Assembly (NCBI GenBank): GCA_963838925.1
Contig: CAWISW010000003.1
Span: 384,001 to 448,000 of the forward strand
From: an uncultured Nitrososphaerota archaeon
GTDB taxonomy: Archaea > Thermoproteota > Nitrososphaeria > Nitrososphaerales > Gagatemarchaeaceae
Length of the DNA: 64,000 bases
Direction of reading: 5' to 3'
The notes under the pieces were generated by a model, which was not told where the DNA came from, ran no database searches, and saw nothing but the letters and a program-made list of their open reading frames with translations. Positions within the stretch are counted from its first letter, which is position 1. Every line of letters begins with the position of its first letter. The position numbers and the translations under genes are program-made. Below are positions 5,318 through 52,505 of the stretch, piece by piece.

Positions 5318-5385
5318 TAGCGAGGGGTGGAGTTTCAGAGGGATATCCCTCCTTTGAACTTACGGCCGGATTACTCCGGTCACCC
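5318..5385 (-). pseudogene. Orphan 3' part of tRNA-iMet (T-arm plus acceptor) with two 21-nt hairpin introns
   Basis: Minus strand GGTG[ACCGGAGTAATCCGGCCGTAA]GTTCAAA[GGAGGGATATCCCTCTGAAAC]TCCACCCCTCGCTA; acceptor CCTCGCTA identical to the tRNA at 6091. Confidence 0.8.
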
Positions 5386-5419
5386 TTGTCGTCTAAATAC
5401 TCCGTAGTCCTATTGAATC

Positions 5420-6109
5420 ATGGAGTTTTCGTCGCTAACTCCTGGCCGGGCGGAGCTCCTTGGAGCCATGACAGGAGACAAGCGAGTTTTCAAACAGACC
5501 CATGGCTACGGTTTCTACAAAGGATACGATTTGTCGAAATATACCCGATACATTACTTCGATTTGTCTTGGAGCCGACAAGGAATGGGGGAAAAGGCTCT
5601 CGGGCATAGCTTTCAAAGAGTTTGGAATTAGAGGATCAATCTACTGGGATCGTGACGAATGGTTCTTGTTCACCAGCTCGGCGAGATTATTCAGAGGTTT
5701 ATCCCCTTACTATTCGCCTGAATGGAATGCTAGGAAATGGAGGGTCAGCCCGGCCATACTGGCGTCTTCGTTGGAGGCGAGATGTCGCTTCGTAAAGGGC
5801 TATTTCGACGCCGACGGCTATCCGTACTTCAATAAATCTAGAAACAAGATTCTGGTGCAGGTCAATTCTGTAAACAACCGGGGACTAATGGATGTGAGAC
5901 AACTTTTGGAAAGCATGGACTTCCATCCCGGACTCTACAAGCGCTACCGAGACAAAGCGGTTTGGGAGGTCACGATTCAAAGAAAGCAAGAAATCGTGCG
6001 GTTTTCCAGGGAAATTGGTTTTAGCATCGCCAGAAAGCAGAAACGCCTATTGCGAATGATAAATCGCAAATGGCCCGGCTTAATAGTGAGTAGCGAGGGA
6101 AGGATTTGA
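5420..6109 (+). CDS. Free-standing LAGLIDADG homing endonuclease (two motifs)
   Basis: AELLGAMTGD and FVKGYFDADG motifs; IGF...RKQ C-terminal motif; stop codon lies inside the tRNA-iMet T-arm. Confidence 0.85.
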   Translation: MEFSSLTPGRAELLGAMTGDKRVFKQTHGYGFYKGYDLSKYTRYITSICLGADKEWGKRLSGIAFKEFGIRGSIYWDRDEWFLFTSSARLFRGLSPYYSPEWNARKWRVSPAILASSLEARCRFVKGYFDADGYPYFNKSRNKILVQVNSVNNRGLMDVRQLLESMDFHPGLYKRYRDKAVWEVTIQRKQEIVRFSREIGFSIARKQKRLLRMINRKWPGLIVSSEGRI

Positions 6110-6187
6110 ACCTTCGCTCTGCGGGTTATGAGCCCGCCGGGATAACAACCAACGCCTTTTGGGCGCACCTGGCTTCCCCACCTCGCT
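6091..6187 (-). tRNA. tRNA-iMet(CAT) with ~22-nt D-loop intron (~6145-6166)
   Basis: A1:U72, GCGGG-CTCATAA-CCCGC anticodon arm, GAAGGTTCAAATCCTTC T-arm. Confidence 0.92.
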
Positions 6188-6293
6188 AAGCTGAAACACC
6201 CGATTTCTGACTCTTATATCCTTCTCGGAGTCTTGAGGTCCTAAGATTCGCGCGATTCTAGGATTGATGGGGCGACCAGAGAACAAGGCGTTT

Positions 6294-6545
6294 CTAGGAA
6301 GTCACGGGAGAAGGCGGAGTGACCTTCTTGGAACCAGGTTCCGAGATTAGTATGAAACCCGCCAAAATCAACGCAAATCCCACATATTCGAAAATGGGAT
6401 TGGAGCTTGTAATGCAATCTCCGGGAGGGGAAGCGCAACCAGTTAGAGGGAAGAATCTGCTCAGAAACAAGAATCCGCCTACCAAGAGGAATATTCCCGT
6501 CGCCAACACGATCCATCCCAAACGGCGGACCTGACTCTTCCTCAT
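6294..6545 (-). CDS. Small 2-TM membrane protein
   Basis: Two hydrophobic helices flanking a Cys pair. Confidence 0.55.
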   Translation of the reverse strand: MRKSQVRRLGWIVLATGIFLLVGGFLFLSRFFPLTGCASPPGDCITSSNPIFEYVGFALILAGFILISEPGSKKVTPPSPVTS

Positions 6546-6712
6546 GTCTCTAGAATCTTCACCCTCTAAGATAAGCGTGCGCCGAGCCTAAGACGCGGGC
6601 GGCGTCGTCCAGGCATTGACAGGAAGAATGTGACGTGCATCTACGAGAGCCCAACGTATCGCCCGTTTCGTTACGTGTGACTGTAAAGAAATGAGTGTGA
6701 AAAGAGCCTAAA

Positions 6713-7252
6713 CTAACTTCTCTGGAGAACTAGGCTCTCGGCATCCACCCCAACCGCAGCGTCAACGTCTTCCTTGAGCCGCCTGAGCCTTTGCACGTCG
6801 TGCCCCTTCCTGACGAAGCGCTTGACCTCCTCCTCGAAGGGCCTCGCCGTGTCTCCTTCCAGCATCTTGTCGGCGAAGCAGACTATCTTCTCCTCGAGGG
6901 TCCTAGGGACGTATTCCCCCGCGGGGAACTTTAGCGCGACAGCCTCCTCGTGCGAGATCCCCGCGCCGACGTGCCTCTTGACTATCTCCACGACGACACC
7001 GTCCACTCCTTCCTTCTGCAACAGCTCCGCCCCGACGTACCCGTGAGCCACCGTCTGTATCTGTGTCCGCCCGATGTCGTGGAGGAGCGCTCCCGCGACC
7101 GCGGCCTCCTGGTTGACGAGGTTCCCGCGCGACGCAGCCTTCTCGGAGAGCAGCCTCGAGATGGTGGCGCACGCCTGGCAGTGGCTGACGATGCGCTCGT
7201 TGCTCCCATACTTCTTGTGGAGGGCCAAGGCCTGCTGCGCGCTGGGAATCAT
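6713..7252 (-). CDS. HD-domain protein (TIGR00295-like)
   Basis: H...LLHDIG...HG...RHVGAG...ADK motifs. Confidence 0.88.
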   Translation of the reverse strand: MIPSAQQALALHKKYGSNERIVSHCQACATISRLLSEKAASRGNLVNQEAAVAGALLHDIGRTQIQTVAHGYVGAELLQKEGVDGVVVEIVKRHVGAGISHEEAVALKFPAGEYVPRTLEEKIVCFADKMLEGDTARPFEEEVKRFVRKGHDVQRLRRLKEDVDAAVGVDAESLVLQRS

Positions 7253-7287
7253 TCAATCACGGTCTTGGCCGGCGGAGAGAGAAGAGG

Positions 7288-7803
7288 TCACTTTGCGATC
7301 GTGATGTCTTCTTCGAGCTGGTTGATCTTCCACTTCAGCGCCTCCTTCAGCTCGGTGTTGTCTATCCTGTTGAGCGGCCTCTGGCAGGTGGGGCACTTGA
7401 AGAAGGTCTCCATGGCCTCCTCGAAGGTCCTGGTGACGCACGTGGGCGTCCCGCAGAAGTAGAACTCGCGAGTCTCCTCGTGGTCGAGGCGCTGCTTGAG
7501 CCTGTTGAGTATCTTCTTCTTCTGGGTCTGGATGAACCCGTCTGTCTGGTCGCGCTGCGCCTTCCACCTGTACACGAACCACCCCCTCTTCGGGTCCCTG
7601 ACCCTGACTCCCGAGATGAGGCTCCTCCCGAAGAGGTCGTAGAGGGCCTTCCTGACCGTCTTGATCTTGAGGCCCGTGGCCGAGGCGATCTCCTCGTCCG
7701 TGGCGTTCTCGTTGTTGAGCAGAGCCCGGGCTACCCGGACGTAATCGGGGCCGCCGATGAGGCCCGCGACCTTCACAAAAGTATCCTCGTATTCTATTTT
7801 CAC
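7288..7803 (-). CDS. tfe: Transcription factor E alpha
   Basis: Winged helix (TDEEIA...VRKALY...GWFVYRW) plus Zn ribbon FKCPTC. Confidence 0.93.
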   Translation of the reverse strand: MKIEYEDTFVKVAGLIGGPDYVRVARALLNNENATDEEIASATGLKIKTVRKALYDLFGRSLISGVRVRDPKRGWFVYRWKAQRDQTDGFIQTQKKKILNRLKQRLDHEETREFYFCGTPTCVTRTFEEAMETFFKCPTCQRPLNRIDNTELKEALKWKINQLEEDITIAK

Positions 7804-8330
7804 GGTTTCTGTTCTACCTGCTTTCCGTTCGCAGAAGGAACGATCCTTAGCTTGTAATCGCCGAACACCTTCTTAAGCTCTTCCCCCTTTTGCAGGTCGT
7901 GGATCGTTATCGCGAGGGCCGCGACCTCCGAATGGGGCTGCGACGTCACCGCGATGTTGTAGTCCGCCATCTTGTAGACCTCCCCTGGGACCTTCGGGCC
8001 TCCGACGGCGATGAGGAAGCTGTCTCGCTTCCTTAGCTCGGCTATCTTGTCTTGGAGCGGGCCGCCGTACATGGTTAGGTGGACGATGGTCCTCCCCTCG
8101 GCCTTCGAGTCCTGGAAGACGCGCTTCCACTTCTCCTCGACTATCGCAAAGTCACCGCCCCACGTGCGGTTTACCTCTCCCACCGTCTCGGCGAGCTCCT
8201 TCTCCACCTCCTCGAGATAGATTGCCTCCGCCCCGAGCGCCCTCGAGACGAGGCACAGGTGGGTTAGCGTGCGGTAGTCGCGTACGTACCTGTGGCCGAC
8301 CCTGACGACCTTGACGCTCTTCAGCCCCAA
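7800..8330 (-). CDS. tRNA (cytidine56-2'-O)-methyltransferase aTrm56
   Basis: GHR..RD.R..TH, VHLTMYG, QPHSEVAAL motifs. Confidence 0.93.
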   Translation of the reverse strand: MGLKSVKVVRVGHRYVRDYRTLTHLCLVSRALGAEAIYLEEVEKELAETVGEVNRTWGGDFAIVEEKWKRVFQDSKAEGRTIVHLTMYGGPLQDKIAELRKRDSFLIAVGGPKVPGEVYKMADYNIAVTSQPHSEVAALAITIHDLQKGEELKKVFGDYKLRIVPSANGKQVEQKP

Positions 8331-8331
8331 C

Positions 8332-9429
8332 TCAAAGGGGCACCTTGCCCTCTATGCCCTCCTCCTCGGCCATCTCGCTGAGCTTCAAGTCGGCGAGCCC
8401 GAGGAGGTTCTCGACTCCCTGCCCCGTCTTAGACGAGATCTCTACCATGTCGACGGGACCGAGCGCGTGCTTCCTCTCCTCGATGAGCTCCGCTGGCGCG
8501 AGGTCGCACTTGTTGAGGACGAAAATCGCCCTCGATGGCTTCACCATCAGCTCCGTCAGCGCCTGCGCGGAGCTCTCGTAGCTCCTCAGGAACTTCTCGG
8601 CGGACTGGCTGACGTCGAGGAGGAGAAAGACCACGCTCGCGTAGGATATCTCCTCCAGGGTGGACTTGAACGACTCGATGAGGTACGGAGGGAGGTTGCT
8701 GATGAAGCCGACCGTGTCCGTGAGGAGGGTCTTCCTGTCCCCGACCATTACGGCCCTCGTCGTGGGCGCGAGCGTCGTGAAGACCCCCGCGTCGACGCTC
8801 TTCGACTCCCCCGTCAGCTTGTTGAAGAGGCTGGTCTTCCCGGCAGCCGTGTAGCCCGCGAGGGCTATAGTGGGGAACGCGAGCTTCCTCCTGTGCTCCC
8901 GGAAGAGCTCCCTCCTCTTCGCGACCCCTTCGACCTTCTTCCTCAAGACGGAGACGCGGCTCTTCATCATCCTCGTGTAGACGTCGGCCTCGTACTTGCC
9001 AAGGCCGAAGAACCCCGGCTGCTCTCCCTGCCTAGCCATCTTGACGCTCTCCCTCGCCCTTGGGAGCTCGTAGACGAGCTCAGCGAGCTGGACCTGGAGC
9101 TTCGCCTCGGCGGTCGAGGCCCTCATCGCGAATATCTCGAGTATCACCTTCTCCCTGTCCTTGACCTCCACCTTGCAGAGCTTGGCGAGCGCGTAGGCCT
9201 GCGAGGCCCTCAGCGCCTCGTCGAATAGGACGATGCCCGCTCCCTTCTCCCTCACCTCCCTCGCGAGCTCCTCGGCCTTCCCGCTGCCCACCCCGTACTT
9301 GGCGTGGTGCAGGAAGCCCTGTGTGACTACGCCGATGGGCTCGTATCCCGCGGCCTCCGCGAGAGCCTCTGCTTCCTCTATGGTGTCCCTGTCGGGGCGC
9401 GCTACCAGGAGCGCCTTTCGCGCGCTCAG
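8332..9429 (-). CDS. hflX: GTPase HflX (probable CTG start overlapping the mbf1 stop)
   Basis: GYTAAGKTS, DTVGF, NKCD motifs; conserved N-terminus continues upstream of the tracked ORF to 9429. Confidence 0.92.
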   Translation of the reverse strand: MSARKALLVARPDRDTIEEAEALAEAAGYEPIGVVTQGFLHHAKYGVGSGKAEELAREVREKGAGIVLFDEALRASQAYALAKLCKVEVKDREKVILEIFAMRASTAEAKLQVQLAELVYELPRARESVKMARQGEQPGFFGLGKYEADVYTRMMKSRVSVLRKKVEGVAKRRELFREHRRKLAFPTIALAGYTAAGKTSLFNKLTGESKSVDAGVFTTLAPTTRAVMVGDRKTLLTDTVGFISNLPPYLIESFKSTLEEISYASVVFLLLDVSQSAEKFLRSYESSAQALTELMVKPSRAIFVLNKCDLAPAELIEERKHALGPVDMVEISSKTGQGVENLLGLADLKLSEMAEEEGIEGKVPL

Positions 9430-9869: not shown

Positions 9870-9919
9870 GAACGGCTATCCGTTTTGGACTCGCCTTAAA
9901 CACTTCGCTGGTCGGTCTT

Positions 9920-10236: not shown

Positions 10237-10326
10237 GTTGTTGTTTAGAAGCCTCAGGGACATATTAAGCATACACGCGTCGTAGATTTTTAGATAGGCC
10301 TCGCGACACCGCCTTCGCATCTCCAA

Positions 10327-10806: not shown

Positions 10807-10869
10807 CCGGGCCAGCACAACGATGGCTTTAAGGCTGGACTCGACAACAGCGGAGGTCAGGGAAGACGC

Positions 10870-16323: not shown

Positions 16324-16324
16324 G

Positions 16325-24508: not shown

Positions 24509-25078
24509 GTGGTCGTTAAGTATCCAAAGACCCTGCAATCGTGTTTGGCTTCTCGCAGAGTCTGCAACAGATGTAAGAGGGAACTACCCACTACTGCCTT
24601 CTACACTCAACCGATAGGAATCCGCCGAATTTGCAAGAGGTGTGACAACGAATACTCGAAAAACTATCACAAGTCTCATCTCGAAGGCGCCAGAAGATTA
24701 GATAGGAAACGCGCGCTCAGAAACCCGAAGAGAAGATGGGCGACGGCTTGTTTGTCAGGTCATCGAAGAAGGGGGTATGCTATTGAGATGACCTCTGAAG
24801 AGCTCTATCAAGTGGCGTTGCATACTGAGCTTTGCTTCATCTGCGGTTCTCAGATAGACTGGGAGCTGGGAAACAAGGGTCACATGCATAACAGGAGTCC
24901 AACGCTAGACAGAGTGGACAACGAAGATGTAATCAGGATTGACAACATCCTCATTCTCTGCTACAAATGCAACGCAACCAAGCGCGACCGCACCCTGAAA
25001 GAGTTCCTAGACTATTGCAGGGCCGTCGTCGCTAGGTTCTACTCACACTTCGAGTATCCGCAGCTCGTGCATTTATAA
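24509..25078 (+). CDS. Free-standing HNH-type (Zn-finger) endonuclease
   Basis: CxxC pairs, CFICG...PTLDRVDN...NILILCYKCNATK; lower GC; overlaps the nrdJ 3' end by 40 bp. Confidence 0.8.
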   Translation: MVVKYPKTLQSCLASRRVCNRCKRELPTTAFYTQPIGIRRICKRCDNEYSKNYHKSHLEGARRLDRKRALRNPKRRWATACLSGHRRRGYAIEMTSEELYQVALHTELCFICGSQIDWELGNKGHMHNRSPTLDRVDNEDVIRIDNILILCYKCNATKRDRTLKEFLDYCRAVVARFYSHFEYPQLVHL

Positions 25079-27363
25079 CAACCCGCCTCGAATATTATCG
25101 CGTTCTCGTGACAGTCGGGGCACGTGCCTCCGCGCATCAGCGGGACCGACGACTCCTTGTTCACCTTGCCCGAGGTGAGGACCTCGAGCGCCTTGGCGAC
25201 GGCGTCTGGTATCGAGAGCAGCTGGATTCCCTCCTCCCACGAGACGTACTTGCCGCGGATGCCCTTCAGCATCTTCACGACGCTCTGGATGTCCCCGCCG
25301 TGCTGGAGGTAGAGGCTGATCAGCCTGCCGATCGCCTCGGCGTCGGCCTTCTCGTCCCCGCCCAGCTTGCCCAGAGTCACGAAGACCTCCTTCAGGTCGC
25401 CGGCCTCGTCGGAGTTGGCGGTGACGTACAGCCCTCCCTGGGGCAGCTTGAGCTTCAGAGTCCTCCCGGTGAGCACCTTCGGCCTCTCGAATGTCGTGGG
25501 CGCCTCCTGCTTGGGCTCCGTCCTCACGCCGCCGGCCTCCTTCTTGTCCACGTTCGCCGTCTCGAGGATGCCCTCCCTGCTTCCTTCCCTGTAGACCGTG
25601 ATGCCCTTGCACCCGAGCTTCCACGCGAGGAAGTAGATCTTCTCGACCTCTTCCGTGGAGATGTCCTGGGGTAGGTTGACCGTGCTCGAGATGGCCGTGT
25701 CGATGTGCTTCTGGATGGCGGCCTGCATCCTGACCCTCATCTCGGGCTTGATCTGGTGAGCCGTCACGAAGTACGCGGGCAGGGAGGTCTCGTCGGTGAT
25801 GCGGAAGACCCTCATGTATTCCTTGACGAGCGGGTGCCAGACCTTGAACTCGCCCTCGCTGAGGGACTTGCTCCTCCGGGTGTAGTAGAGGGCGAAGACC
25901 GGCTCGACGCCGCTCGAGGAGCCCACGAATATGGAGCCTGACCCCACCGGCGGGACGGTCGTGAGGGCTGAGTTCCTTATCCCCTGGGTCCTGATCTTCT
26001 CGCGCACGTTCGCGTCCAGCCTCTTGATGAAGGGCTGGGCCAGGTGCTTCTCCGCGTCGAAGGCGGGCGCCGGGCCCTTCTCCTTCGCGAGGTCGGTCGA
26101 GTAGTCGTAGATGACGTTCGTCATCCTCTCGAAGAGCTTGTCGACGAACTCTACGGTGGCCTCGTCGTCATACTTCATGCCGAGCTTGATGAGCATGTCT
26201 CCCAGCCCGGTCGTCCCTACTCCCACTCTCCTCGACCACAGAGAGGCGGTCTTCTGCTGCGGGAGGGGGTGCTTGTCCGCGTTGTAGTCGAGGACGTTGT
26301 CCAGGAACCTAGTGGCGTACTGCGCCGCCTTTGCGAGGCCGGGCCAGTCGATGCTCGCCCGGTCGGTGAAGGCGTCCTTCACGAAGGAGCTCAGGTTGAC
26401 CGAGCCCAGGCAGCAGCAGCCGTAGTTCTCGAGGGTCTGCTCGCTGCACGGGTTGACCCCCTCGACCGCCATGCCGTTGTACTCGGTGGTGGAGTCCCTC
26501 TTGATCGTGTCCCAGAATATGAGGCCCGGCTCGTCGCTCTGCCACGCCGCCTTGACCAGCTGGTTCCAGACCTCCCTCGCGCGGACGCTCCTCTCGAACT
26601 TCACCTTCTCGTTCTGGAACCTGAGAGTGAACTGGGAGTCCTTCTCGACCGCGTTCATGAACTCGTCGGTTATCTTGACCGAGATGTTCGCATAGTTCAC
26701 CTTCTTCAGGTCCTTCTTGACGTTGATGAAGTCGAATATGTCGGGGTGGTCAACGCGTATCGTGATCATCAGGGCCCCCCTTCGCCCGGCCTGCCCGATC
26801 GTCCCCGTGGTCGTCGAGAGGAGCTCCATGAAGGAGACCGAGCCGGAGCTGAAGATGGCCGAGTTGTTCACGGGCGTGCCGCGCGGCCTCAGCAGCGAGA
26901 TGTCGGTGCCCACGCCCCCTCCGAAGCTGTAGGTCCTCGCCGCCTCCTTGCACCAGTCGAAGATGCCCTCGATCGAGTCCTCCCTGATCTTGAAGAAGTA
27001 ACAGTTGAGTAGCGTCGACCTTCTGGACTGACCTGCGCCGAACAATATCCTGCCGCCAGGCACAAACTTGAAGTCGTCTAGGAGCCAGTAGAACTTCTCT
27101 GTCCACTCGGCCCTCTTGACGTCGTTGACCTCCACGGAGGCCAGCTCTCGGGCGACCCTCTCCCAGAGCTGCTTCGGGAGCCTCTCGACCTGCTTCCCGG
27201 TCTCGTCCCTGAGCGCGTACTTCTCGTAGAAGACCCGCGCCCTGAGCTCGTCGCCGCCGAAGGCCTCGAGCGTCTCTTTTGGAAGAATTACCTCCGGCTT
27301 TTGGAGCTGCTGCTCCATCATCTCGCCCTCCTTCTTCGTTGATTCCTCAATCTCAGCTGTCAA
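25039..27363 (-). CDS. nrdJ: Adenosylcobalamin-dependent (class II) ribonucleotide reductase
   Basis: TLLNC, GRRGA, NPCSEQ, SSGVEP, ISSTVN, KGITVYR, C-terminal TSCPD/Zn domain. Confidence 0.95.
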   Translation of the reverse strand: MTAEIEESTKKEGEMMEQQLQKPEVILPKETLEAFGGDELRARVFYEKYALRDETGKQVERLPKQLWERVARELASVEVNDVKRAEWTEKFYWLLDDFKFVPGGRILFGAGQSRRSTLLNCYFFKIREDSIEGIFDWCKEAARTYSFGGGVGTDISLLRPRGTPVNNSAIFSSGSVSFMELLSTTTGTIGQAGRRGALMITIRVDHPDIFDFINVKKDLKKVNYANISVKITDEFMNAVEKDSQFTLRFQNEKVKFERSVRAREVWNQLVKAAWQSDEPGLIFWDTIKRDSTTEYNGMAVEGVNPCSEQTLENYGCCCLGSVNLSSFVKDAFTDRASIDWPGLAKAAQYATRFLDNVLDYNADKHPLPQQKTASLWSRRVGVGTTGLGDMLIKLGMKYDDEATVEFVDKLFERMTNVIYDYSTDLAKEKGPAPAFDAEKHLAQPFIKRLDANVREKIRTQGIRNSALTTVPPVGSGSIFVGSSSGVEPVFALYYTRRSKSLSEGEFKVWHPLVKEYMRVFRITDETSLPAYFVTAHQIKPEMRVRMQAAIQKHIDTAISSTVNLPQDISTEEVEKIYFLAWKLGCKGITVYREGSREGILETANVDKKEAGGVRTEPKQEAPTTFERPKVLTGRTLKLKLPQGGLYVTANSDEAGDLKEVFVTLGKLGGDEKADAEAIGRLISLYLQHGGDIQSVVKMLKGIRGKYVSWEEGIQLLSIPDAVAKALEVLTSGKVNKESSVPLMRGGTCPDCHENAIIFEAGCYKCTSCGYSKCE

Positions 27364-29999: not shown

Positions 30000-30074
30000 C
30001 CAGATTTCCCTCGCTCATGGCCTTCTGATGCACCCAGATATTTAAGCGGCTTGCAAAATCTTGGCAGGGAGAAT

Positions 30075-30100
30075 TGGTGGGGTCGCCCGGATTTGAACCG
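30075..30100 (-). repeat. Duplicated tRNA-Pro 3' end (att-like direct repeat)
   Basis: TGGTGGGGTCGCCCGGATTTGAACCGG identical to the sequence starting at 31542. Confidence 0.9.
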
Positions 30101-30165
30101 GACACGTCGGGCCCTTCCGGGTAACCTATTTACGACAGCGAGCCGACTTTCACTCGGCGTCCAGG

Positions 30166-31530
30166 TTGACTAGTCGCAGCTCTATGGCGTTTGCTGCCGC
30201 TACGATTTGCACACTGGCCTTCTATCTTCTAGTCTCCAGCTATCTCTCTCCGAATTCGGTTACGACGTCCACGAGTTCGACTGAGATCAGCACCACCCCT
30301 TCACCTTACGGCGCTCTGCTCAGGGGGTCGACGATCTACTCGCAGCTAGGCTATCCGTTGGTGAGCTACAACGGCAATTCGCAATACTCCCCAAGCAAAC
30401 CAAATTTCACCCTTTCTTACCGAAGCACTCATCTTGGTTTGGACGACGTGGGCTTTGCAGTAGCGACGCCAGTCATGAGTCTCACTCAAGCAGTTCGACT
30501 CGTTGAATCTCCGGAAGGCCCGAGTAAGGCAAACTACAGCTTGGTGGCAGCGGAATTCGACCCGGGCATAATCGTAAACAACACTGTCTGGCAATCGGCC
30601 ACTTGGCTGCTTTGGTTCGCCCAGGTCTACGACGGGTTCTGGCTCTTCGGACAAGGTAACGATGCAAGCTCATTCCTCTTCAGCGTGAACGCCGCTTCGG
30701 GCACGGTCTCGCAACCTACCAGCTTCCCTACCTACCAACCTTTGCCTGGGAACTATGCGCTAACCGTGACGGGCTCCCAGGCGATGAAAGTTGTGCGGGG
30801 ACTTGGAATCTTTTCAAGTGTCCCGTTTGAGCTGACACAAGGCGGGAACCTCACTAGTATCAGCCCTAGAATCATCAGGTTTGATTCAGGATCGAGTCTT
30901 GACATCCAGCACCCATTGAACTCTGCCCTTGATGGGACCTCGAGGCTATGCTGGATGATCTCGCTGACCTATTCCGCGTCAGCGAGCAGGCAAGGGTGGG
31001 AGGGAGAGTTCGCTGTGGACGCGCAGTCAGGCGAGCTCGACTCCGTATCCGTCGGCCCAATTTTCCCGGAGAGCTTTTTCGCAACGGTCAATTCAAATCT
31101 GGTCCAGTCGTCTGCGCGCAACCTCACAATCTCTCAGGAAACATTCCAAATGAGCGTGAATGCGACTGGACTTCCAAGCTCAATTGCCATCGCAGTTCCT
31201 GGCGTTCTTGTGGTCCGGCCAGGATCGACCGCTTCAATCGAAGTGAACTTCACGTCGAACTCTAACTACATCGCAAACCTTACCCTCTCGAATCCTCTCT
31301 CCGGCCTCCAAGGCCTTTCGGCAAACGGGCTTCCTCAAGGCGTGTCTGCAAGGTTCAGCAACACCACGCTCGCGCTTCAGGGAGGTACAAGCACCACGCG
31401 GACAATCATGCTTACGATTGAAGCGGATGCGCCTGCAGGAACATACCTGATGTACGTTGACAATCTGCCATTCTTCCTGACAGTCTGGAATGGCGCTGGT
31501 CAGTGGCCTCCGCCGCCCTCGGTTGGGTAG
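30166..31530 (+). CDS. Membrane-anchored secreted protein (PepSY-like and Ig-like segments)
   Basis: N-terminal TM, S/T linker, VNA.SG/VDA.SG repeats; bracketed by tRNA-Pro 3' repeats. Confidence 0.75.
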   Translation: MTSRSSMAFAAATICTLAFYLLVSSYLSPNSVTTSTSSTEISTTPSPYGALLRGSTIYSQLGYPLVSYNGNSQYSPSKPNFTLSYRSTHLGLDDVGFAVATPVMSLTQAVRLVESPEGPSKANYSLVAAEFDPGIIVNNTVWQSATWLLWFAQVYDGFWLFGQGNDASSFLFSVNAASGTVSQPTSFPTYQPLPGNYALTVTGSQAMKVVRGLGIFSSVPFELTQGGNLTSISPRIIRFDSGSSLDIQHPLNSALDGTSRLCWMISLTYSASASRQGWEGEFAVDAQSGELDSVSVGPIFPESFFATVNSNLVQSSARNLTISQETFQMSVNATGLPSSIAIAVPGVLVVRPGSTASIEVNFTSNSNYIANLTLSNPLSGLQGLSANGLPQGVSARFSNTTLALQGGTSTTRTIMLTIEADAPAGTYLMYVDNLPFFLTVWNGAGQWPPPPSVG

Positions 31531-31541
31531 GGGGGCAAATT

Positions 31542-31664
31542 TGGTGGGGTCGCCCGGATTTGAACCGGGGGTCTCAAGCGCCCAAGGCGACTTCTCATGC
31601 TGATTTGAAGCCTAGACCAGACTCGCCCTGCAGCTCTGAAAGCTACAGCCTAGCCGACGACCCC
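31542..31664 (-). tRNA. tRNA-Pro(TGG) with two non-canonical introns (~28 nt in D-loop, ~16 nt in anticodon stem)
   Basis: GGGGTCG/CGACCCC acceptor, encoded CCA, CAA[intron]GC-CTTGGGC-GCTTG anticodon arm, CCCGGTTCAAATCCGGG. Confidence 0.9.
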
Positions 31665-32413
31665 TTGTCCAAGGTTCTATTGCGTCTCATATTATACTCT
31701 ATCTCCGCAAATTTGGTGAAGCTGATGACTTCTCTTTTGACGGCCTTCTTGAAGTCTTGCACTTTGGGCTTGATGCGATCCCAACTTAATTCCGCCGATT
31801 CCAAGACGAGTTTCATCTTCGCAATTTTCTCCGGATGTCTTGATATCGGCAACAGCCTTTCTGCGAGCGTTCTCACTTCACTCCTTCGGCGCACCTCAAG
31901 CCTTGCCTTGGCGTCAACATCGATTCTGGAGTTTCCCTGTGCTCCATAGAGCAAGGGGTGGAAACCATCTCGGCCCAGCGCCGCTGCAGATTCTCTTAGG
32001 ATTCTTCTATCCTTTGATTCGATTACAAATGCAACTGCGGCGCTTCCTTTGTCATTGTAGAGGCACCAAGAACCTTCAGAATCGGAGTAGCCTCCGAAGA
32101 ACGGATAGAATAAGGTAGAAGTGATAGGAATCGCCTCCGGCTTCTTCACGAAGAATGCAAAGCTCGGATCAAGATAGACGGAAAGTTTCCAACAATAGCG
32201 TCCGGGCAAGTAGGCCTTGTCGGGAGTCATCTTGCATTGGCCATATTTCCTGAATGTCAAGAAGAAAAGTTCGGCCATCGCCGGATGAGTTGTGCTAAGA
32301 CGTGCCCATACTGTGTAGCGAGAATTCCAACACCCATTCAAGTCTCCGGCCCTTAGTCCGCTGAGATAGGCCCTCTCGCTACAGTCTCCGGCGAATGGAT
32401 TTCGAGAGATCAC
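31643..32413 (-). CDS. Free-standing LAGLIDADG homing endonuclease (two motifs)
   Basis: AYLSGLRAGD and FFGGYSDSEG motifs; stop codon inside the tRNA-Pro D-loop intron. Confidence 0.85.
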   Translation of the reverse strand: MISRNPFAGDCSERAYLSGLRAGDLNGCWNSRYTVWARLSTTHPAMAELFFLTFRKYGQCKMTPDKAYLPGRYCWKLSVYLDPSFAFFVKKPEAIPITSTLFYPFFGGYSDSEGSWCLYNDKGSAAVAFVIESKDRRILRESAAALGRDGFHPLLYGAQGNSRIDVDAKARLEVRRRSEVRTLAERLLPISRHPEKIAKMKLVLESAELSWDRIKPKVQDFKKAVKREVISFTKFAEIEYNMRRNRTLDKGSSARL

Positions 32414-32438
32414 ACCCCCTAATCATGATGATGCATTA

Positions 32439-32485
32439 AAGCGCCCAGTCTGCTTGAAGCCTAGACCAGCCTAGCCGACGACCCC
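32439..32485 (-). pseudogene. Orphan intron-less 5' half of tRNA-Pro
   Basis: GGGGTCGTCGGCTAGGCTGGTCTAGGCTTCAAGC-AGAC-TGGGCGCTT equals the spliced 5' part of the tRNA at 31664 with an altered loop. Confidence 0.85.
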
Positions 32486-32515
32486 TACGACCACCCTCTC
32501 CACCCCAATCGTTAG

Positions 32516-33136
32516 TTATGCATTCCTCTTGGACACGAACGGATTCCCCTGGACGAAGAACCGCCACTGCCGCTCCCGTGCCCTGCTGATGCCAATCCTT
32601 TCCGAGACCTCGGCCTTTACGGGCTCTTCGCTGCCCAGGACGTAGAGCCTCTTCGACGTCACCACGTCCTCGCCGTTGAACTCCTTGCCGATTGCCAGCG
32701 CCTTCGTCAGCTTCCCGGGCCCGTTCGTGAGCCTCGAGAGCTCTTCGACGCCGCGGTTCCTCTTCATCTGGGCCGTCCCCTCCACGGGCTCCAGGGCCCT
32801 GACCAGGACCGCGCCCGGCTGCCCCTCCCCTTCAGTTGTGAAGTTCAGGCACCAGTGATTTCCATAGGAGAGAAAGACATAGACCCTTCCCGCTTCCCCG
32901 AACATGAGCGAGTTCCTCTTCGTGACCCCGCGGAAAGAGTGGCTGGCCGGGTCGTCGCTTCCACGGTAGGCCTCGACCTCCACTATCTTCCCAGAGATGA
33001 CATTCTTCCCGGCTTTCCTCACGAGGAGGCACCCGAGAAGGTCTCGCGCGACGTCGGGGGTGTATCGGGAGAAGAACGAGCGGCCCAGGCGATTCACGGA
33101 CACTCCGGAGCAAGACCGGTTTATCAGGCATGCCAA
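32516..33136 (-). CDS. mpg: 3-methyladenine DNA glycosylase (MPG family)
   Basis: IVEVEAY...DPASH, YG.HWCLN, AVLVRALEP, NGPGKLT. Confidence 0.93.
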   Translation of the reverse strand: MACLINRSCSGVSVNRLGRSFFSRYTPDVARDLLGCLLVRKAGKNVISGKIVEVEAYRGSDDPASHSFRGVTKRNSLMFGEAGRVYVFLSYGNHWCLNFTTEGEGQPGAVLVRALEPVEGTAQMKRNRGVEELSRLTNGPGKLTKALAIGKEFNGEDVVTSKRLYVLGSEEPVKAEVSERIGISRARERQWRFFVQGNPFVSKRNA

Positions 33137-34574: not shown

Positions 34575-34714
34575 TGGTGGGGACGGCCGGACTTGAACCG
34601 ACGGATCACAGGTATCGCCGCTCCGATGGGAAATCATCCACGCAAGCGTGTCATCAAACCTTTTGTCGTTTGACCACTGGAGCCTGTTGCCATGCCTGTC
34701 TAGGCTACGTCCCC
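34575..34714 (-). tRNA. tRNA-Trp(CCA) with a 63-nt canonical 37/38 intron (34614-34676)
   Basis: GGGGACG/CGTCCCC, ACAGG-CTCCAG|A-CCTGT, GTCGGTTCAAGTCCGGC, encoded CCA; intron contains TGATGA. Confidence 0.92.
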
Positions 34715-37620: not shown

Positions 37621-37690
37621 TACGTTGCCCGTGTTATGAGAACCCTTCCATCAAAAGGGTTAAATTCCCTCGAGGGGGAGCGAGAGTTCA

Positions 37691-37805
37691 GCCGGCCATA
37701 GCGTGTGGGTCCGACCTGGACTCTTTCCGAACCCAGAAGTCAAACCACATGTCGTCTAGGTGTTAGTGAGGTCCGAAAGGTCTCGTGAAGCCTAGATGTC
37801 GGCAC
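37691..37805 (+). rRNA. rrf: 5S rRNA (unlinked from 16S/23S)
   Basis: GGCCATAGC...CCGAACCCAGAAGTCAAACC; terminal helix GCCGGC/GTCGGC; TTAAAT box at ~37660. Confidence 0.9.
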
Positions 37806-37814
37806 CTTTCCATC

Positions 37815-38468: not shown

Positions 38469-38605
38469 ACTGCATTACTTGCCATTCCTATTTCAGCCCA
38501 CATGAGGCACCTTTTCCAACCAACCTAGGCCGCGTTTCTTTTTTCAACGAAGTAAGATTCGGTAAAACGTTTAAGTCCACCCTCAAAAGGCACATTCCAT
38601 AGTCA

Positions 38606-48024: not shown

Positions 48025-48028
48025 GCGC

Positions 48029-49108
48029 TTGATAGTAAGCGAGTTCATCCCAAAGCAAGGCATCTGCAGGCTCACAGTGGAGTCTCCGGACGACCTCTGG
48101 ACCCTGCGCAGGCTCCTCGCCATCGGCGACACCGTCGTCACGAAGAGCTCCCGCGTCTCCAAGAGGGAGGGCGACTACACGAGGCCCGACAAGGGAGAGC
48201 GGATCAAGGTCACCATCGCCCTCAAGATCGAGGGGATCACCCTGGACAGCAGCGTCGGCAGGCTCCGGATCAGGGGCAAGATAGTCGAGGCGAGCGACGA
48301 CAGCGTCACCAAGGCCGGCTCCCACTCGCTCCTCCTCTCTCCGGGCCAGGAGCTGACGATCAGGAAGGAGGACTGGGGGCCCTCCGACACGAGGGTCCTC
48401 AACTCCTCGACAGAGTCCGAGCGCAGGTTCCTCCTGGTCGCGATAGACCGGAGGGAGGCGGGCGTAGGCCTGCTCACCGGCTCCCACCTCACCATCGTCT
48501 CCACCCTGGAGTCGGGCGCGTCTGGGAAGGGGGGCTCGAACCAGAAGGAGGTCGACATGCAGCCCTACTTCAGCAAGGTCCTCCAGCTCCTGAAGGCCAC
48601 CTGGCGCGAGGGCGACGTCGTCGTGGTGGCGGGGCCCGGGAACACGAAGCTCACGATGGAGAACCTCCTCAGGAAGGACCCCGACCTGAGGAAGAACGAG
48701 GTCCTCGTGGAGGGCTTCGACCTCTCCGGGGCGGACGGCGTGAGGGCGCTGGTAAAGTCCGAGGGGTTCAGGAAGGTGGCGAGCGACAGCGTCCTGGTCG
48801 AGGTCCAGGAGGCGGTCGAGGAGGCCATCAGGCGGATATCGCGGGGGGAGAAGAGGATCGCCTACACGCTCGCGCGGGTCTCCGAGGCCGGCAAGGCCGG
48901 GGCGGTGGAGAAGTGCATCGTCTCGGACGACGTCTTCGCCAACAACCTCGACGAGAACGAGCTCGTCAGGACGCTCAACGGGATCGAGGAGAAGGGAGGC
49001 AAGGTCTTCCTTTGCGACTCCTCGCTGGAGACCGGAAAGCAGGTCTCCGCGCTTGGGGGGATAGTCGCCCTTCTGCGGTACGACATCTCGACCATGCCTC
49101 AGCGCTAG
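48029..49108 (+). CDS. pelA: Pelota (Dom34) ribosome rescue factor
   Basis: DDLW.L...GD, RLRIRG, AGPG..K, LGGIVALLRY. Confidence 0.93.
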   Translation: MIVSEFIPKQGICRLTVESPDDLWTLRRLLAIGDTVVTKSSRVSKREGDYTRPDKGERIKVTIALKIEGITLDSSVGRLRIRGKIVEASDDSVTKAGSHSLLLSPGQELTIRKEDWGPSDTRVLNSSTESERRFLLVAIDRREAGVGLLTGSHLTIVSTLESGASGKGGSNQKEVDMQPYFSKVLQLLKATWREGDVVVVAGPGNTKLTMENLLRKDPDLRKNEVLVEGFDLSGADGVRALVKSEGFRKVASDSVLVEVQEAVEEAIRRISRGEKRIAYTLARVSEAGKAGAVEKCIVSDDVFANNLDENELVRTLNGIEEKGGKVFLCDSSLETGKQVSALGGIVALLRYDISTMPQR

Positions 49109-49434
49109 CCGATAAGACCGCCGACAACGGGAATTATGAATTCGGTGATGATGACAAGCAGGACTCCCCCTATGATGAGATCCTTGCCCAGCCTTCGGCC
49201 GAGGTGCGTATAGTAGAGGAGGACTCCGACCAACAGACACGTGACATAGGCGACTCGGACAATGTCAACCACGGCTGTGTTTATGGCAATGAGGGTTGCG
49301 GTCGTTTCAGACGCGAACTGGCTCGCGTATTGTTGGATTCCCGCCTCGATTCCGGTCGGTTGGGCCGCGTCCAAAATAGCTAGTCCCATGGCGGACGCGA
49401 CTGCTGGCAGAACCAGCAAGAGCGACGGGGTCAT
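49105..49434 (-). CDS. Small membrane protein
   Basis: Signal plus 2 TM separated by RRLGKD. Confidence 0.6.
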   Translation of the reverse strand: MTPSLLLVLPAVASAMGLAILDAAQPTGIEAGIQQYASQFASETTATLIAINTAVVDIVRVAYVTCLLVGVLLYYTHLGRRLGKDLIIGGVLLVIITEFIIPVVGGLIG

Positions 49435-49474
49435 CCCCCTGATAGTCTAATCCGCTATTTAACCGGCAACGCGG

Positions 49475-50782
49475 TCAGGTCGGCTGGAACGCGCCGGCGA
49501 TGTAGGGCCCCGCGATGACCGCGAAGAGCGCGAAGAAGATCGCGAGGGTCACGCCCGTCGTGACCCGCCTCGCGAGCTCCTCGCTAATCCTCCCCCTCCC
49601 CGCGCCCGTCAGCGCGACCTGGAAGGCCTGCCCTCCGTCCATGGGGTAGATGGGGAGGCTGTTGAATATCGCGAGGTTGAAGTTGACGAAGAACATCCAG
49701 AAGAGGGCCGAGGTGACCAGGGGGGTCATGCCCCCGAGGGGCGAGGTGTAGAACGGGGAGAGCACGTCGGAGAACGGCACCCTGTACTCGGACGTCGCGA
49801 ACGTCGGGATGTCCACGAGGTACGCGAGCGGGGAGACCTTGTACGCGGTCAGGTAGCTGCTTGCAGTCGACTGCAGAGAGCCGTAGCTCTCCTGGTCCAC
49901 CCCGAGGAAGGGGTAGGTGGCCGTGGAGCTCACGCCGCTGGTCTCGTTGATCGTCGTCACGGTGTAGTTGCTCAGGACCACGTTGTCGATGGTCCTGGTC
50001 TGCCCAGCGCGCCATATGGTGACGTTCACCTTCTCGCCCACGAAGTAAGTCCCGTTGTGCAAGATGCTCAGGTCGGTCACGGGCGCGTTGTTGAGGGCTA
50101 CCACGAAGTCGCCGGGCTTGATCCCCGCCACGTACGCGGGGGAGTGCAGAGACGGGGAGTCGGGCACCACGCCCACGATGCCCGCGCCCTTGACCGCGGG
50201 CACCATCGTCGAGACCGTCAGTATGAGCAGAAGTATGCAGGCGATGCCGACGATGAAGTTGATCCCCGAGCCGGCGCCGAGCACCCTGAGCGAGTCCCTG
50301 CTCCGCGACTGCTTCATCTGCTTGTCGTCCACCTCCACGAACGCCCCGATGGGGAGGAAGGCCAGGAGGAGGACGCCTGCGGCCTTGACCCTCAGGCCGA
50401 GGTTGCGCGCGACGATCCCGTGGGACGCCTCGTGGATGACGACGGCGACGATCACGGCTAGCCAGACACTGAGGGGGAGGTAGGGGTTGATCCCCGGGAG
50501 CAGGAAGTTGGCCAAGGGGGAGATCGTCCGGACGCTCGAGGCGATCGCCGCGCCCTCGGGGGAGAAGTAGAGTGCGGAGACCTCGATTGCGATGACGTAG
50601 ATTGCGATCGCCGCCTCGACCGGGACGAGGGCGACCATAAGCCAGCCCAGCGGCTTGCTGACTCTCCAATTCCCGAGTTTGTCCATCAAACCGAGGCCCC
50701 TCTTCGTCCTGAGCATGAAGAAGAGGAACCAGCGCGAGACGGGCTTGTACTCCTGCGCCTCGTCTTCGGGATTGTCGGACAT
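49475..50782 (-). CDS. Site-2 protease (M50) with PDZ domain
   Basis: HEASH, GAFVE, FNSLPIYPMDGG, GIKPGD. Confidence 0.92.
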   Translation of the reverse strand: MSDNPEDEAQEYKPVSRWFLFFMLRTKRGLGLMDKLGNWRVSKPLGWLMVALVPVEAAIAIYVIAIEVSALYFSPEGAAIASSVRTISPLANFLLPGINPYLPLSVWLAVIVAVVIHEASHGIVARNLGLRVKAAGVLLLAFLPIGAFVEVDDKQMKQSRSRDSLRVLGAGSGINFIVGIACILLLILTVSTMVPAVKGAGIVGVVPDSPSLHSPAYVAGIKPGDFVVALNNAPVTDLSILHNGTYFVGEKVNVTIWRAGQTRTIDNVVLSNYTVTTINETSGVSSTATYPFLGVDQESYGSLQSTASSYLTAYKVSPLAYLVDIPTFATSEYRVPFSDVLSPFYTSPLGGMTPLVTSALFWMFFVNFNLAIFNSLPIYPMDGGQAFQVALTGAGRGRISEELARRVTTGVTLAIFFALFAVIAGPYIAGAFQPT

Positions 50783-50861
50783 ACCTGTCAGATCAAGTTT
50801 GCTCGCCCGACGAGAACCCTTTAAGGTTTGCACCGGCGCGACCACCTCAGGGCGCGATTTC

Positions 50862-51812
50862 TTGGTGGACTGCTCTAGGTGCGGGCTGAGGCCTTCCTAC
50901 TACACCAGGAGGTATTCGGGGGAGAGTCTCTGCGCGGACTGCTTCCAGGAGACCACCGTCGAGAAGGTGAGGCGTACCATCTCGAAGTACGGCATGCTGC
51001 GCCACGGCGAGAAGGTCGGGGTGGCGGTCTCCGGCGGGAAGGACAGCCTCTCCCTCCTGAGAATGCTCCATGGCCTGAGCGCCGGCGAGGGCTCCGGGGC
51101 GAAGTACGAGCTGGTCGCCCTGACGGTGGACGAGGGGGTCGCCGGATACCGCGACGAGGCCATCGAGCACGCGCGTGCGCTGTGCGGAGAGCTCGGCGTC
51201 GAGCTCGTGCTGGTCTCCTACAGCGAACTATTCGGGTTCAGCCTCGACCAGGCCCTCGACTGGAAGGACGAGCGCGAGCTCTCCTCGTGCAGCATGTGCG
51301 GCGTGTTCCGGAGGCGCGCCATCGACGAGGCGGCGCTCAGGGCGAAGGTGAACGTCGTGGCGACCGCGCACAACCTCGACGACTACGTCCAGACGTTCAT
51401 GATGAACCTCCTCCACGGCGACGTCGAGCGGATTGGCTGGCTCGACCCGTCCGCCTACGACGACAACTTCCCCGTCCGCAGGGTAAAGCCCCTCACGGAG
51501 GTCTACGAGGAGGAGGTCGCCCTCTACGCGTACCTCTCGAAGATACCCTTCCAGAGCGCGAGCTGCCCGTACATGCACGAGGGCCTCAGGAGCGAGGTCC
51601 GCGACTACCTCAACGAGCTCGAGTCAAGGCATCCGGGAATGAAGAACACGCTCTTGAAATCTTCTCTTTCGCTGACTTCCAGGCTGAAACAACCCAAGTC
51701 TAAGGAAAAAATGCTTTGTTCCAAGTGCGGCGCAATTTCTTCCAGTGAGGTATGCGGCGTATGCAGAATGAAAGAGATTATAGCTGAACACACAGGTATC
51801 GGTGCGAAATAA
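50862..51812 (+). CDS. tRNA 2-thiolation protein TtuA/Ncs6 (TIGR00269)
   Basis: SGGKDS, CSMCGVFRR, TAHNLDD, CPY, terminal CxxC pairs. Confidence 0.9.
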   Translation: MVDCSRCGLRPSYYTRRYSGESLCADCFQETTVEKVRRTISKYGMLRHGEKVGVAVSGGKDSLSLLRMLHGLSAGEGSGAKYELVALTVDEGVAGYRDEAIEHARALCGELGVELVLVSYSELFGFSLDQALDWKDERELSSCSMCGVFRRRAIDEAALRAKVNVVATAHNLDDYVQTFMMNLLHGDVERIGWLDPSAYDDNFPVRRVKPLTEVYEEEVALYAYLSKIPFQSASCPYMHEGLRSEVRDYLNELESRHPGMKNTLLKSSLSLTSRLKQPKSKEKMLCSKCGAISSSEVCGVCRMKEIIAEHTGIGAK

Positions 51813-51857
51813 CCAGCGGTATGTATGTGATTAAATACAACTTCGTCGAATCTCGGT

Positions 51858-52505
51858 GTGGATTCGCAAGCCGGAGAACTCGCAGGCATAGTCAAATCTG
51901 CGACCGATTCCCAATTACGGGTTCTCCGGGAGGAGGAGAGAGTCACATATCATTCCGGGAACAAACGGTTGGATAGTTTCGCCGTTAGGCAGGAAGACCT
52001 TACCAAATTGCGAGAACGAATAAACCGCATCAAGTCGCTACGAAGCGTTGACAAACAGTTTGTTGCAACTATGCTGGACACTGAAGTTGCAATTGGTTAT
52101 TTTAGGAAGAAGGAGTTCTATGTTAGGACAGGCTTCGTAATCGGCAGATGGAAAGCCTACGTTTCCGTTAAGATGACATACAAAGGTGACATAGCTCGCC
52201 TAGCAACTTTTCTAGGTCTACAGGTACCGAGCAAGACCAAACTGCATTACAATACCTTGAAGGCAACCAAAGAGGGAGTCTGGTGTCTTCAAACAACTGG
52301 AATCATCCCTTATGTGGCAATAAAGACGGTTGCGCCCTTTCTCTATAATGAGAAGACAAAGATTGAAGCCGAGTCAATAATCAAACACGGCCCGTTTGTC
52401 CCCGGCGAATTCCGTCACCCATTCGAGGATGACGGTGGAGTGAGAGTCAAGAGAGGGGTGTGGATTTGGCCCGGCCTAGAGAAGGCGAACCTGCAAACCA
52501 TTTAA
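51858..52505 (+). CDS. Single-motif LAGLIDADG-like protein
   Basis: FVATMLDTEVAIG...VSVKMT...PFLYNEKTK.EAE...GPF; low GC; stop TAA lies in the SRP TATA box. Confidence 0.65.
   Translation: MDSQAGELAGIVKSATDSQLRVLREEERVTYHSGNKRLDSFAVRQEDLTKLRERINRIKSLRSVDKQFVATMLDTEVAIGYFRKKEFYVRTGFVIGRWKAYVSVKMTYKGDIARLATFLGLQVPSKTKLHYNTLKATKEGVWCLQTTGIIPYVAIKTVAPFLYNEKTKIEAESIIKHGPFVPGEFRHPFEDDGGVRVKRGVWIWPGLEKANLQTI

Follow-up and report, generated by a model that had tools for sequence, protein, structure and literature searches.

We report that the ends of essential genes in a soil archaeon of the Nitrososphaerales are occupied by small nuclease-like open reading frames (ORFs) which are probably free-standing homing-endonuclease cassettes, built like the mobile ORFs of fungal mitochondria and residing here in an archaeal chromosome. 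The stretch of DNA that was analysed, referred to below as the window, is 64,000 nt long (G000:C3:384001-448000) and belongs to a 1.84-Mb genome (G000) in three contigs, with a GC content of 0.61. Five ORFs in the window have their 3' ends on, or no more than 27 nt from, the genes for tRNA-iMet, tRNA-Pro, 5S rRNA, signal recognition particle (SRP) RNA and a ribonucleotide reductase, and all five were confirmed at the coordinates and essential loci given for them in an earlier note on this DNA. The cassettes measure 0.55-0.85 kb and hold one ORF each. All five ORFs are intact, and their composition is foreign, or at any rate strongly atypical: the GC content is 0.48-0.52 against 0.59 for the window, and three host genes have a GC content at third codon positions (GC3) of 0.83-0.91, compared with 0.52-0.59 in the ORFs. 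The five nucleases had been described as one family. We found instead three unrelated types: two double-motif LAGLIDADG proteins (P0001 and P0002, with no detectable similarity to each other), two single-domain LAGLIDADG-plus-helix-turn-helix (HTH) proteins (P0003 and P0004, so assigned through a chain of profiles), and one HNH/endonuclease-VII-type protein (P0005).

Each locus was compared with 40 relatives, 22 of them from the same genus. The target RNA genes were placed by Rfam and ARAGORN, and insert-bearing tRNAs were re-run after removal of the inserts. Empty alleles were observed among same-genus genomes at six of the six loci tested, namely the five in the window and a tRNA-Gln locus elsewhere in the genome, and intact, frameshifted and remnant alleles were found as well. 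The earlier note had held that a lack of empty alleles in related genomes would speak against mobility; all five window loci turned out to be polymorphic for presence and absence. The insertion point is the same across genomes that include empty alleles and decayed copies, as expected of a homing element. The order inserted terminal piece, endonuclease ORF, displaced native piece was observed at tRNA-iMet, tRNA-Pro, 5S and the SRP locus of G010; it was not seen at the reductase locus or at relatives docked on protein genes. The proposal that displaced target fragments lie at three loci also held up in comparison with relatives (5318-5385, 32439-32485 and 38502-38521), as did the suggestion that at each of these RNA genes the ORF-linked piece takes the place of the native one, which is left behind.

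The tRNA-iMet locus shows this arrangement. The 229-aa double-motif LAGLIDADG ORF P0001 (5420-6109, plus strand, assigned by Pfam) ends with TGA inside the working tRNA-iMet gene on the minus strand (6091-6187; Rfam tRNA, 31.5 bits), its last seven codons being antisense to the tRNA 3' end. Default ARAGORN called this gene Pro(tgg); after removal of a 22-nt D-loop insert (6146-6167) it was recognised as tRNA-Met(cat), with an A1:U72 pair and a GGG/CCC anticodon stem, which we take to be the marks of an archaeal initiator tRNA. Beyond the start of the ORF, at 5318-5385 on the minus strand, matches to relatives revealed a second tRNA-iMet 3' part, consisting of the T arm and acceptor strand with two small T-arm inserts (~21 nt). 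Between this displaced piece and the 3' parts of the working tRNA-iMet genes in the ORF-free genomes G012, G022 and G017, identity is 94-99%. In these three and in G008 the locus carries no ORF and the 3' part of the working gene is the sequence found displaced in the window; G018 and G006 are empty too. The T stem reads GGTGG/CCACC in nine of nine tRNA-iMet genes of relatives and in the displaced piece. GAAGG/CCTTC occurs only in the insert-free piece linked to the ORF (6091-6114, minus strand, delimited by comparison with relatives), and by our own reading the overlapping P0001 frame does not force this change, because the alternative stem also reads through. The native piece is thus nearer to relatives than the inserted one, with its unique T stem, and the piece adjoining the ORF 3' end is the cassette-borne replacement, the native piece lying displaced beyond the ORF start. 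The left end of the cassette (5386-5419, plus strand), as read from the sequence, holds a putative promoter, the TATA-like TCTAAATACT, which precedes the ATG by about 20 nt.

P0001 matches Pfam LAGLIDADG_3 at 6.9e-11 (42.7 bits, cut-off 22.5) and intein endonuclease domains in PDB at 2e-4 to 5e-4, and in a catalytic alignment made by eye its motifs TGD and DADG supply the acidic residues. No close homologue was found in the 40 relatives searched. The tRNA-iMet gene of G020 is occupied by a different, 1.3-kb insert (L019:200-1437) with the same layout of a new and an old piece. To the left of the displaced piece in the window lies a 202-aa Thr-rich ORF (4644-5252) with a hydrophobic N-terminus, no family match and no DNA match in relatives. 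Upstream of it, a 14-mer at 4541-4554 was considered as a third, degenerate tRNA-iMet 3' fragment (two mismatches) and was rejected, since 10 such matches were found where 7.45 were expected, which is chance level.

At the tRNA-Pro locus the ORF and the tRNA share a strand. The 256-aa double-motif LAGLIDADG ORF P0002 (31643-32413, minus strand, assigned by its family profile) ends with TAG inside a complete tRNA-Pro(TGG) gene (31542-31664, minus strand), and its last seven codons and stop read through tRNA positions 1-22. Because of two inserts, one of 28 nt in the D loop (~31622-31649) and one of 16 nt at position 29/30 (31589-31604), this tRNA was missed by default ARAGORN and by Rfam (region 31400-32600); ARAGORN recognised it after the inserts were removed. 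Upstream of the ORF, comparison located a displaced, insert-free tRNA-Pro 5' part (32439-32485, minus strand) that covers positions 1 to ~42, is altered after position 31 and lies next to the native upstream flank. It is 88% identical to the tRNA-Pro of G006, where the gene is insert-free. In G020, G022 and G008 the same insert-bearing gene is joined directly to the upstream flank, with no ORF. G002 carries a P0002 orthologue at tRNA-Pro, and in G017 and G014 only the tail of the ORF is left beside the tRNA. Metagenome contigs from four runs in three studies join 31634 to 32467 and occur beside contigs that hold the ORF; the junction contigs carry several mismatches and therefore come from related strains, not from the same strain. 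Here again the ORF-linked piece would be the replacement and the native piece would have been displaced beyond the ORF start. The ORF-linked piece matches G020 at 94%, and the rule that the native piece is nearer to relatives would hold here only on the condition that G020 stems from an invaded allele.

The Pfam match of P0002 itself (15.4 bits) lies under the cut-off of 22.5. A profile of its family (56 homologues, many with PF14528) matched I-AniI (1.5e-6) and I-HjeMI (1.6e-6) in PDB, with I-OnuI-type enzymes weaker. G23, D24, G108 and D111 are invariant in the family, and E113 follows D111 in an SDSEG motif; the conserved acidic residue closing each LAGLIDADG motif helix presumably has a catalytic role. 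A search of 50,697 phage records with P0002 gave no match.

The 5S rRNA gene (37688-37807, plus strand; Rfam, 63.4 bits) is followed by P0003 (37815-38468, minus strand, assigned through the profile chain described below), a 217-aa ORF with an HTH and a single LAGLIDADG-like domain whose stop lies 7 nt beyond the 5S 3' end. A sequence repeat at 38502-38521 (plus strand) copies the 5S 3' end and trailer and sits beside the native T-rich trailer. The locus is empty in G022, G006, G014 and G005; in G019 the P0003 orthologue is truncated to 119 aa, G020 has another P0003-family member, and G018 and G009 have remnants with duplicated 5S ends. The cassette-side 5S end reads GGCACC, as in the window, in four of five occupied or remnant alleles; four of five empty alleles read GGCGCC. 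The displaced copies in G009, G018 and G019 are longer than that of the window and read GGCGCC, as do the empty alleles. The native piece was nearer to relatives than the inserted piece in three of four cases at this locus. This pattern suggests that the piece adjoining the ORF 3' end is the replacement at 5S as well, with the native end pushed beyond the ORF start.

In front of the SRP RNA gene (52532-52840, plus strand; Rfam Archaea_SRP, 100.5 bits) lies P0004 (51858-52505, plus strand), a 215-aa ORF with a single LAGLIDADG-like domain (A1 profile, 7.5e-42). Its stop falls in a new TATA-like box, CCATTTAAGC, and the ORF end is 27 nt before the SRP 5' end. The SRP alleles of G022, G006 and G014 are empty, and G019 carries a P0004 orthologue. 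In empty alleles a TATA-like CACTAAATATAC precedes the SRP 5' end by about 25 nt and lies within the last codons of the upstream gene, and comparison with them points to an older TATA-like box, GATTAAATACA, upstream of the window ORF (51828-51845, plus strand), as the putative displaced SRP promoter. The cassette may thus supply a new promoter box. The SRP locus of G010 (C2:77622-79077, L122) shows the full order: a displaced 28-nt SRP 5' fragment, a 218-aa ORF on the opposite strand that combines the motif AGFFDGDGG with an HTH at its C-terminus, and then a new promoter box followed by the full SRP gene.

The family assignment of P0003 and P0004, which share 26% identity (E 1e-5), took a longer route. 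The earlier note took all five proteins for homing nucleases; family profile searches recovered LAGLIDADG directly for P0001 (Pfam) and P0002 (through its family profile) only, and HNH-type similarity for P0005, and gave no direct match for P0003 or P0004. Their family (37 homologues) has an N-terminal HTH, an invariant E100 and D99 in at least 90% of sequences. A P0003-type profile search of 1.84 billion representatives yielded 140 relatives, 44 of which were aligned (A3) and have the consensus AGLIxGEG. The C-terminal domain of P0003/P0004 (A1) matched A3 at 99.6% (E 1.4e-24), and A3 matched the second LAGLIDADG motif of the P0002 family (A2) at 86.5% (E 4.6e-6). Four of the 44 A3 members match LAGLIDADG_1, LAGLIDADG_3 or Hom_end. 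In a full-length profile comparison with the P0002 family, only the HTH region aligned. A P0003 homologue in a language-model protein atlas is a lead only, at a high score. We therefore assign P0003 and P0004 with moderate confidence, from these profile comparisons, as single-domain LAGLIDADG-plus-HTH proteins. Elsewhere in the genome, a 257-aa frame at G000:C3:277254-277919 (L005) holds two tandem domains of the P0003/P0004 type; the gene just downstream has a start that looks to us like that of ribosomal protein L10e.

The fifth cassette sits on a protein gene. P0005 (24509-25078, plus strand, assigned by PHROG) is a 189-aa HNH/endonuclease-VII-type ORF that overlaps by 40 nt the 3' end of a ribonucleotide reductase gene (25039-27363, minus strand; Pfam Ribonuc_red_lgC 5.8e-110, TSCPD; nrdJ in the earlier note), its last 13 codons being antisense to the reductase C-terminus. 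It matches PHROG 1035, 'endonuclease VII', at 7.6e-23 and also eight PHROGs with the label HNH endonuclease; with Pfam HNH the match is no better than 0.077, and the CxxC pairs CFIC and CYKC are present. G022, G012 and G009 have empty alleles; G018, G020, G006, G019 and G001 have occupied ones, and partial copies or remnants are present in G017, G016 and G015. No duplicated target piece was found at this locus. The last 11 reductase codons are recoded with respect to the empty allele of G022, with 6-7 mostly synonymous differences that include a change of Ser from AGC to TCG.

Beyond the window, paralogues of P0002 in the same genome dock on tRNA-Gln, HMG-CoA reductase, the NADH dehydrogenase 49-kDa subunit (nuoD) and a 4Fe-4S protein (ferredoxin), names that were checked by Pfam. 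The tRNA-Gln locus is empty in G012, G009 and G008, and its ORF had no DNA match in the 24 relatives searched. P0002-family loci outside this genome come mostly from metagenome-assembled genomes (MAGs) of Nitrososphaerales/Thaumarchaeota. Among 47 related loci in other species, four lie on tRNA-Pro, and more distant ones are convergent on the 3' ends of two protein genes. Docking of the P0002 lineage on tRNA-Pro is kept down to ~40% protein identity, and many C-termini in the family (GSSARL, GSSASLV or GVVG) are the tRNA-Pro 5' end translated in two frames. Clades are faithful to their targets: on a quickly built tree with 44 rows, six changes of docking target suffice where five would be the minimum, none of 200 label shuffles did as well, and support is 100 for the tRNA-Pro clade, 96 for the nuoD clade and 100 for the ferredoxin clade. 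The genome holds at least 13 free-standing nuclease-like ORFs, and 9 of 13 have ends no more than 160 nt from an RNA gene (chance 0.7% per end; binomial P 4e-17); without the four ORFs of this kind already described in the earlier note, the count is 5 of 9.

The Pfam scan of this genome returned 23 LAGLIDADG_3 matches. Those in long frames are likely inteins, as suggested by matches within open frames of 544-1245 aa at C1:393809, C3:721525 and C1:38732-40462. At C3:44950-46493 (L129), LAGLIDADG_3 ORFs flank a tRNA (C3:45632-45726) on both sides, one ending 44 nt before the tRNA 5' end and the other, convergent, 6 nt past its 3' end. Broken LAGLIDADG-type frames were also seen at C1:284335-285325 (L130), convergent on tRNA-Cys, and at C2:55311-56294 (L131), upstream of tRNA-Asp on the same strand; both tRNAs bear introns.

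These observations suggest the following mechanism, in which we infer cleavage, immunity and use of host promoters from sequence. In a cassette-free genome the nuclease would recognise a conserved sequence at the end of an essential gene, and a copy that bears the cassette would serve as the template for repair of the break. If the cassette enters within the gene, it would bring its own terminal piece fused to the 3' end of the ORF, and the target gene would therefore stay whole; the pieces carried would be the T arm and acceptor strand at the tRNA-iMet 3' end, positions 1 to ~42 of tRNA-Pro, and the last bases of 5S. The native piece would be pushed beyond the ORF start, still joined to the flank it had before and, on the 5' side, to the original promoter. 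Both copies in the carrier differ from the intact empty allele near the junction, in the T stem, in small inserts or by truncation, and this could render the carrier immune to its own nuclease. Copies would later decay and be deleted, and the imported piece may remain.

Several of our own results weigh against this interpretation. The 1.44-kb insert on the other side of tRNA-Pro carries at its far end a perfect copy of the tRNA-Pro 3' end (30074-30101, minus strand; 28 of 28 nt identical to 31541-31568) and holds no nuclease, only a Ser/Thr-rich surface-type ORF of 454 aa convergent on the tRNA 3' end (30166-31530, plus strand, known from its translation), with a hydrophobic N-terminus and many N-x-S/T sites. 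This ORF had no Pfam or PDB match, and the insert had no DNA match left of tRNA-Pro in the 40 relatives. With the nuclease insert on one side and the 30074-31541 insert on the other, insertions thus flank tRNA-Pro on both sides. The G020 insert at tRNA-iMet holds two ORFs (276 and 142 aa), neither with a Pfam match, and Ser/Thr-rich non-nuclease ORFs lie in the SRP gap of G020 and G017. A displaced piece is therefore not peculiar to nuclease inserts, and either another process also places cargo at these sites or cargo rides on nuclease-made breaks. In other genomes the displaced copy is clear at one of 39 related loci, L069, a MAG of another genus in which a 32-nt tRNA-Pro fragment (positions 1 to ~29, 97% identical) is displaced likewise; 34 of the remaining 38 have no repeat, and four have matches of 11-12 nt (E 0.009-0.036) that we took as chance. 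Around tRNA-Pro position 42/43, the carrier's working gene does not differ from empty alleles, and if the cut falls there the carrier would not be immune. P0005 and its five orthologues read DR(L/V)DN, with R in six of six sequences at what we take to be the site of the HNH general-base histidine. P0003 and P0004 have no direct Pfam or PDB match, and their C-terminal domain, when compared directly by profile with the P0002 family, gave none either. The docking tree is a quick version whose target labels outside G000 rest on sequence motifs, and kinship, or vertical inheritance alone, could also cluster these labels.

The nuclease-free inserts lend themselves to another explanation, according to which integrase-type integrative elements or plasmids entered at the ends of RNA genes and later decayed, leaving the duplicated pieces of tRNA, 5S and SRP as attL/attR scars; the nuclease ORFs would be remaining cargo and not what drove insertion. 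The perfect 28-nt repeat and the G020 insert, with the same layout around two ORFs of no known family, fit this, and the equivalent locus in Caldiarchaeum was so read by Sugahara et al. (2012; PMC3293823). We nevertheless consider it unlikely. A scan of part of the window's ORFs found no recombinase family among the five ORFs or 10 flanking ORFs, in line with the earlier note's contention that no integrase is involved, and the inserts of 0.55-0.85 kb contain no integrase. The repeats that adjoin nuclease ORFs lack the identity of att copies, differing in T stem, insert content and length; the ORF stop codon lies within the replacement piece in family members down to 40% identity; and sister clades dock on the 3' ends of protein genes without any repeat. 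It is still less probable that the ORFs are host genes that are no longer mobile, serving the RNA genes next to them as regulators or as aids to processing, and derived from LAGLIDADG-plus-HTH proteins. P0003 and P0004, with their HTH, degenerate motif and lack of a direct nuclease-family match, would suit such a role, as would docking conserved across deep divergence and the intactness of all five window ORFs; against it stand the empty alleles among congeners at all six loci, the frameshifted and remnant copies, the strongly atypical GC3, and the restriction to this genome of P0001 (40 relatives searched) and of the tRNA-Gln copy (24 searched).

For P0002 alone, a classical intron-encoded endonuclease could be imagined, since ARAGORN with introns allowed builds exactly a tRNA-Pro gene with a giant 865-nt intron (5' exon 32455-32485, 3' exon 31542-31589) that would contain the ORF. 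This is hardly credible given that the complete tRNA-Pro at 31542-31664 is recognised after removal of two small inserts, that G020, G022 and G008 carry the same gene without the ORF, and that beyond position 31 the distal piece has been altered; the nine further large-intron calls out of ARAGORN's ten span ordinary high-GC ORFs, as judged by GC and ORFs alone. More generally, a complete tRNA stands beside each tRNA-docked ORF and the inserts are only 16-28 nt long, which does not match an intron-encoded gene. Free-standing cassettes remain the explanation that we favour.

The replacement of gene ends also shifts intron content, tRNA-iMet having lost two T-arm inserts and tRNA-Pro having gained two inserts. 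The tRNA-Pro D-loop insert forms a hairpin conserved in nine genes, with compensatory change in 4 of the 33 pairs predicted. Seven of seven tRNA-Pro genes linked to an ORF or remnant (G000, G002, G017, G014 and L067-L069) have an insert at either 29/30 or 37/38, and the displaced tRNA-Pro fragments end or degenerate near these same two sites. The position of the inserts near the fragment ends is consistent with immunity through breaking of the target site; several ORF-free alleles carry the same insert. We tentatively raise the possibility, on which we would not insist, that gene-end replacement by nuclease cassettes is one of the main ways in which archaeal tRNA genes gain and lose small introns at unusual positions, a mini-intron and an external ORF making up a split homing unit. 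The intron at 29/30 or 37/38 would break the nuclease target in the carrier's tRNA-Pro, the ORF would have moved into the 5' flank, riding on the tRNA promoter, and deletion of the ORF between direct repeats would leave an intron-bearing, immune tRNA, as in G020, G022 and G008. A 2026 preprint on Asgard tRNA introns describes the arrival of such introns as a question that remains open.

Three other features of the window stand apart from the cassettes: a fluoride riboswitch match above the Rfam gathering score (3703-3772, 37.4 bits), a 137-nt tRNA match (34578-34714; Rfam, 44.7 bits) that ARAGORN with introns reads as tRNA-Trp with a 63-nt intron, and further low-GC stretches (0.48-0.53) at 54800-59800 and 62400-64000.

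If the cassettes are what we propose, free-standing homing endonucleases would be abundant in a cellular archaeal chromosome, beyond phages, organelles, introns and inteins, and their targets in the window would be the most conserved RNA genes. This would offer a concrete and testable route for the gain and loss of archaeal tRNA introns, an alternative reading of the Caldiarchaeum tRNA-Thr locus attributed in 2012 to a plasmid integrase, and new meganuclease-type enzymes with conserved natural targets. In open-access papers, searched without their supplements, we found no report from Nitrososphaeria in which a LAGLIDADG gene is docked on a gene for tRNA, 5S or SRP RNA.

The free-standing endonucleases of T-even phages (seg, mob), associated with intronless homing, lie between or beside conserved genes, carry neighbouring sequence along, and include HNH genes beside nrd. 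The copies docked here on nuoD, ferredoxin, HMG-CoA reductase and the ribonucleotide reductase resemble them in lacking a duplication. The phage systems use GIY-YIG and HNH enzymes in phage genomes and are not known to leave a displaced target piece, whereas the present ones occupy a cellular archaeal chromosome, are mostly of the LAGLIDADG type and target RNA genes. The LAGLIDADG endonucleases of archaeal rRNA introns belong to the same enzyme family, and there too interruption of the target site protects the carrier; here, in contrast, the ORF lies outside the 16-28-nt inserts, which are too short to hold an ORF, and overlaps the exon. A likeness in layout is found at the tRNA-Thr(GGU) locus of Caldiarchaeum subterraneum, where a 5' fragment (positions 1-27) and an insert precede the full tRNA with an extra intron at 24/25; the 1.87-kb insert includes a repeated 545-bp region and an 813-bp ORF with seven paralogues, which was called a putative recombinase by a support vector machine classifier, and integration of the pNOB8 type was proposed (PMC3293823). 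As in our case, the ORF stands beside the tRNA on the same strand and an intron was gained with the insert; the 1.87-kb size, the 545-bp repeat and the attribution of the ORF to a plasmid integrase set that locus apart. The closest match is with the mobile ORFs of fungal mitochondria (mORFs; Allomyces macrogynus atp6, and Glomus atp6, atp9, cox2 and nad3). These endonuclease ORFs create gene hybrids, carrying an inserted C-terminus and leaving the native C-terminus displaced, and their mobility is reported to have been shown biochemically to be endonuclease-driven (PMC3630166). The order gene core, foreign terminal piece, endonuclease ORF, displaced native piece is common to both, as is, at tRNA-iMet and in three of four cases at 5S, a native piece nearer to the genes of relatives than the inserted one. 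The fungal elements reside in organelle genomes and affect protein genes at their C-termini only, often as in-frame fusions; those described here sit in an archaeal chromosome on non-coding RNA genes (tRNA 5' or 3' ends, 5S and the SRP promoter), with the ORF overlapping the RNA gene in sense or antisense and tRNA inserts swapped in or out. The earlier note inferred a chromosomal class of selfish elements; these fungal mORFs and the Caldiarchaeum locus are precedents for the layout, and the cassettes are probably of the mORF kind in a new setting, the archaeal chromosome.

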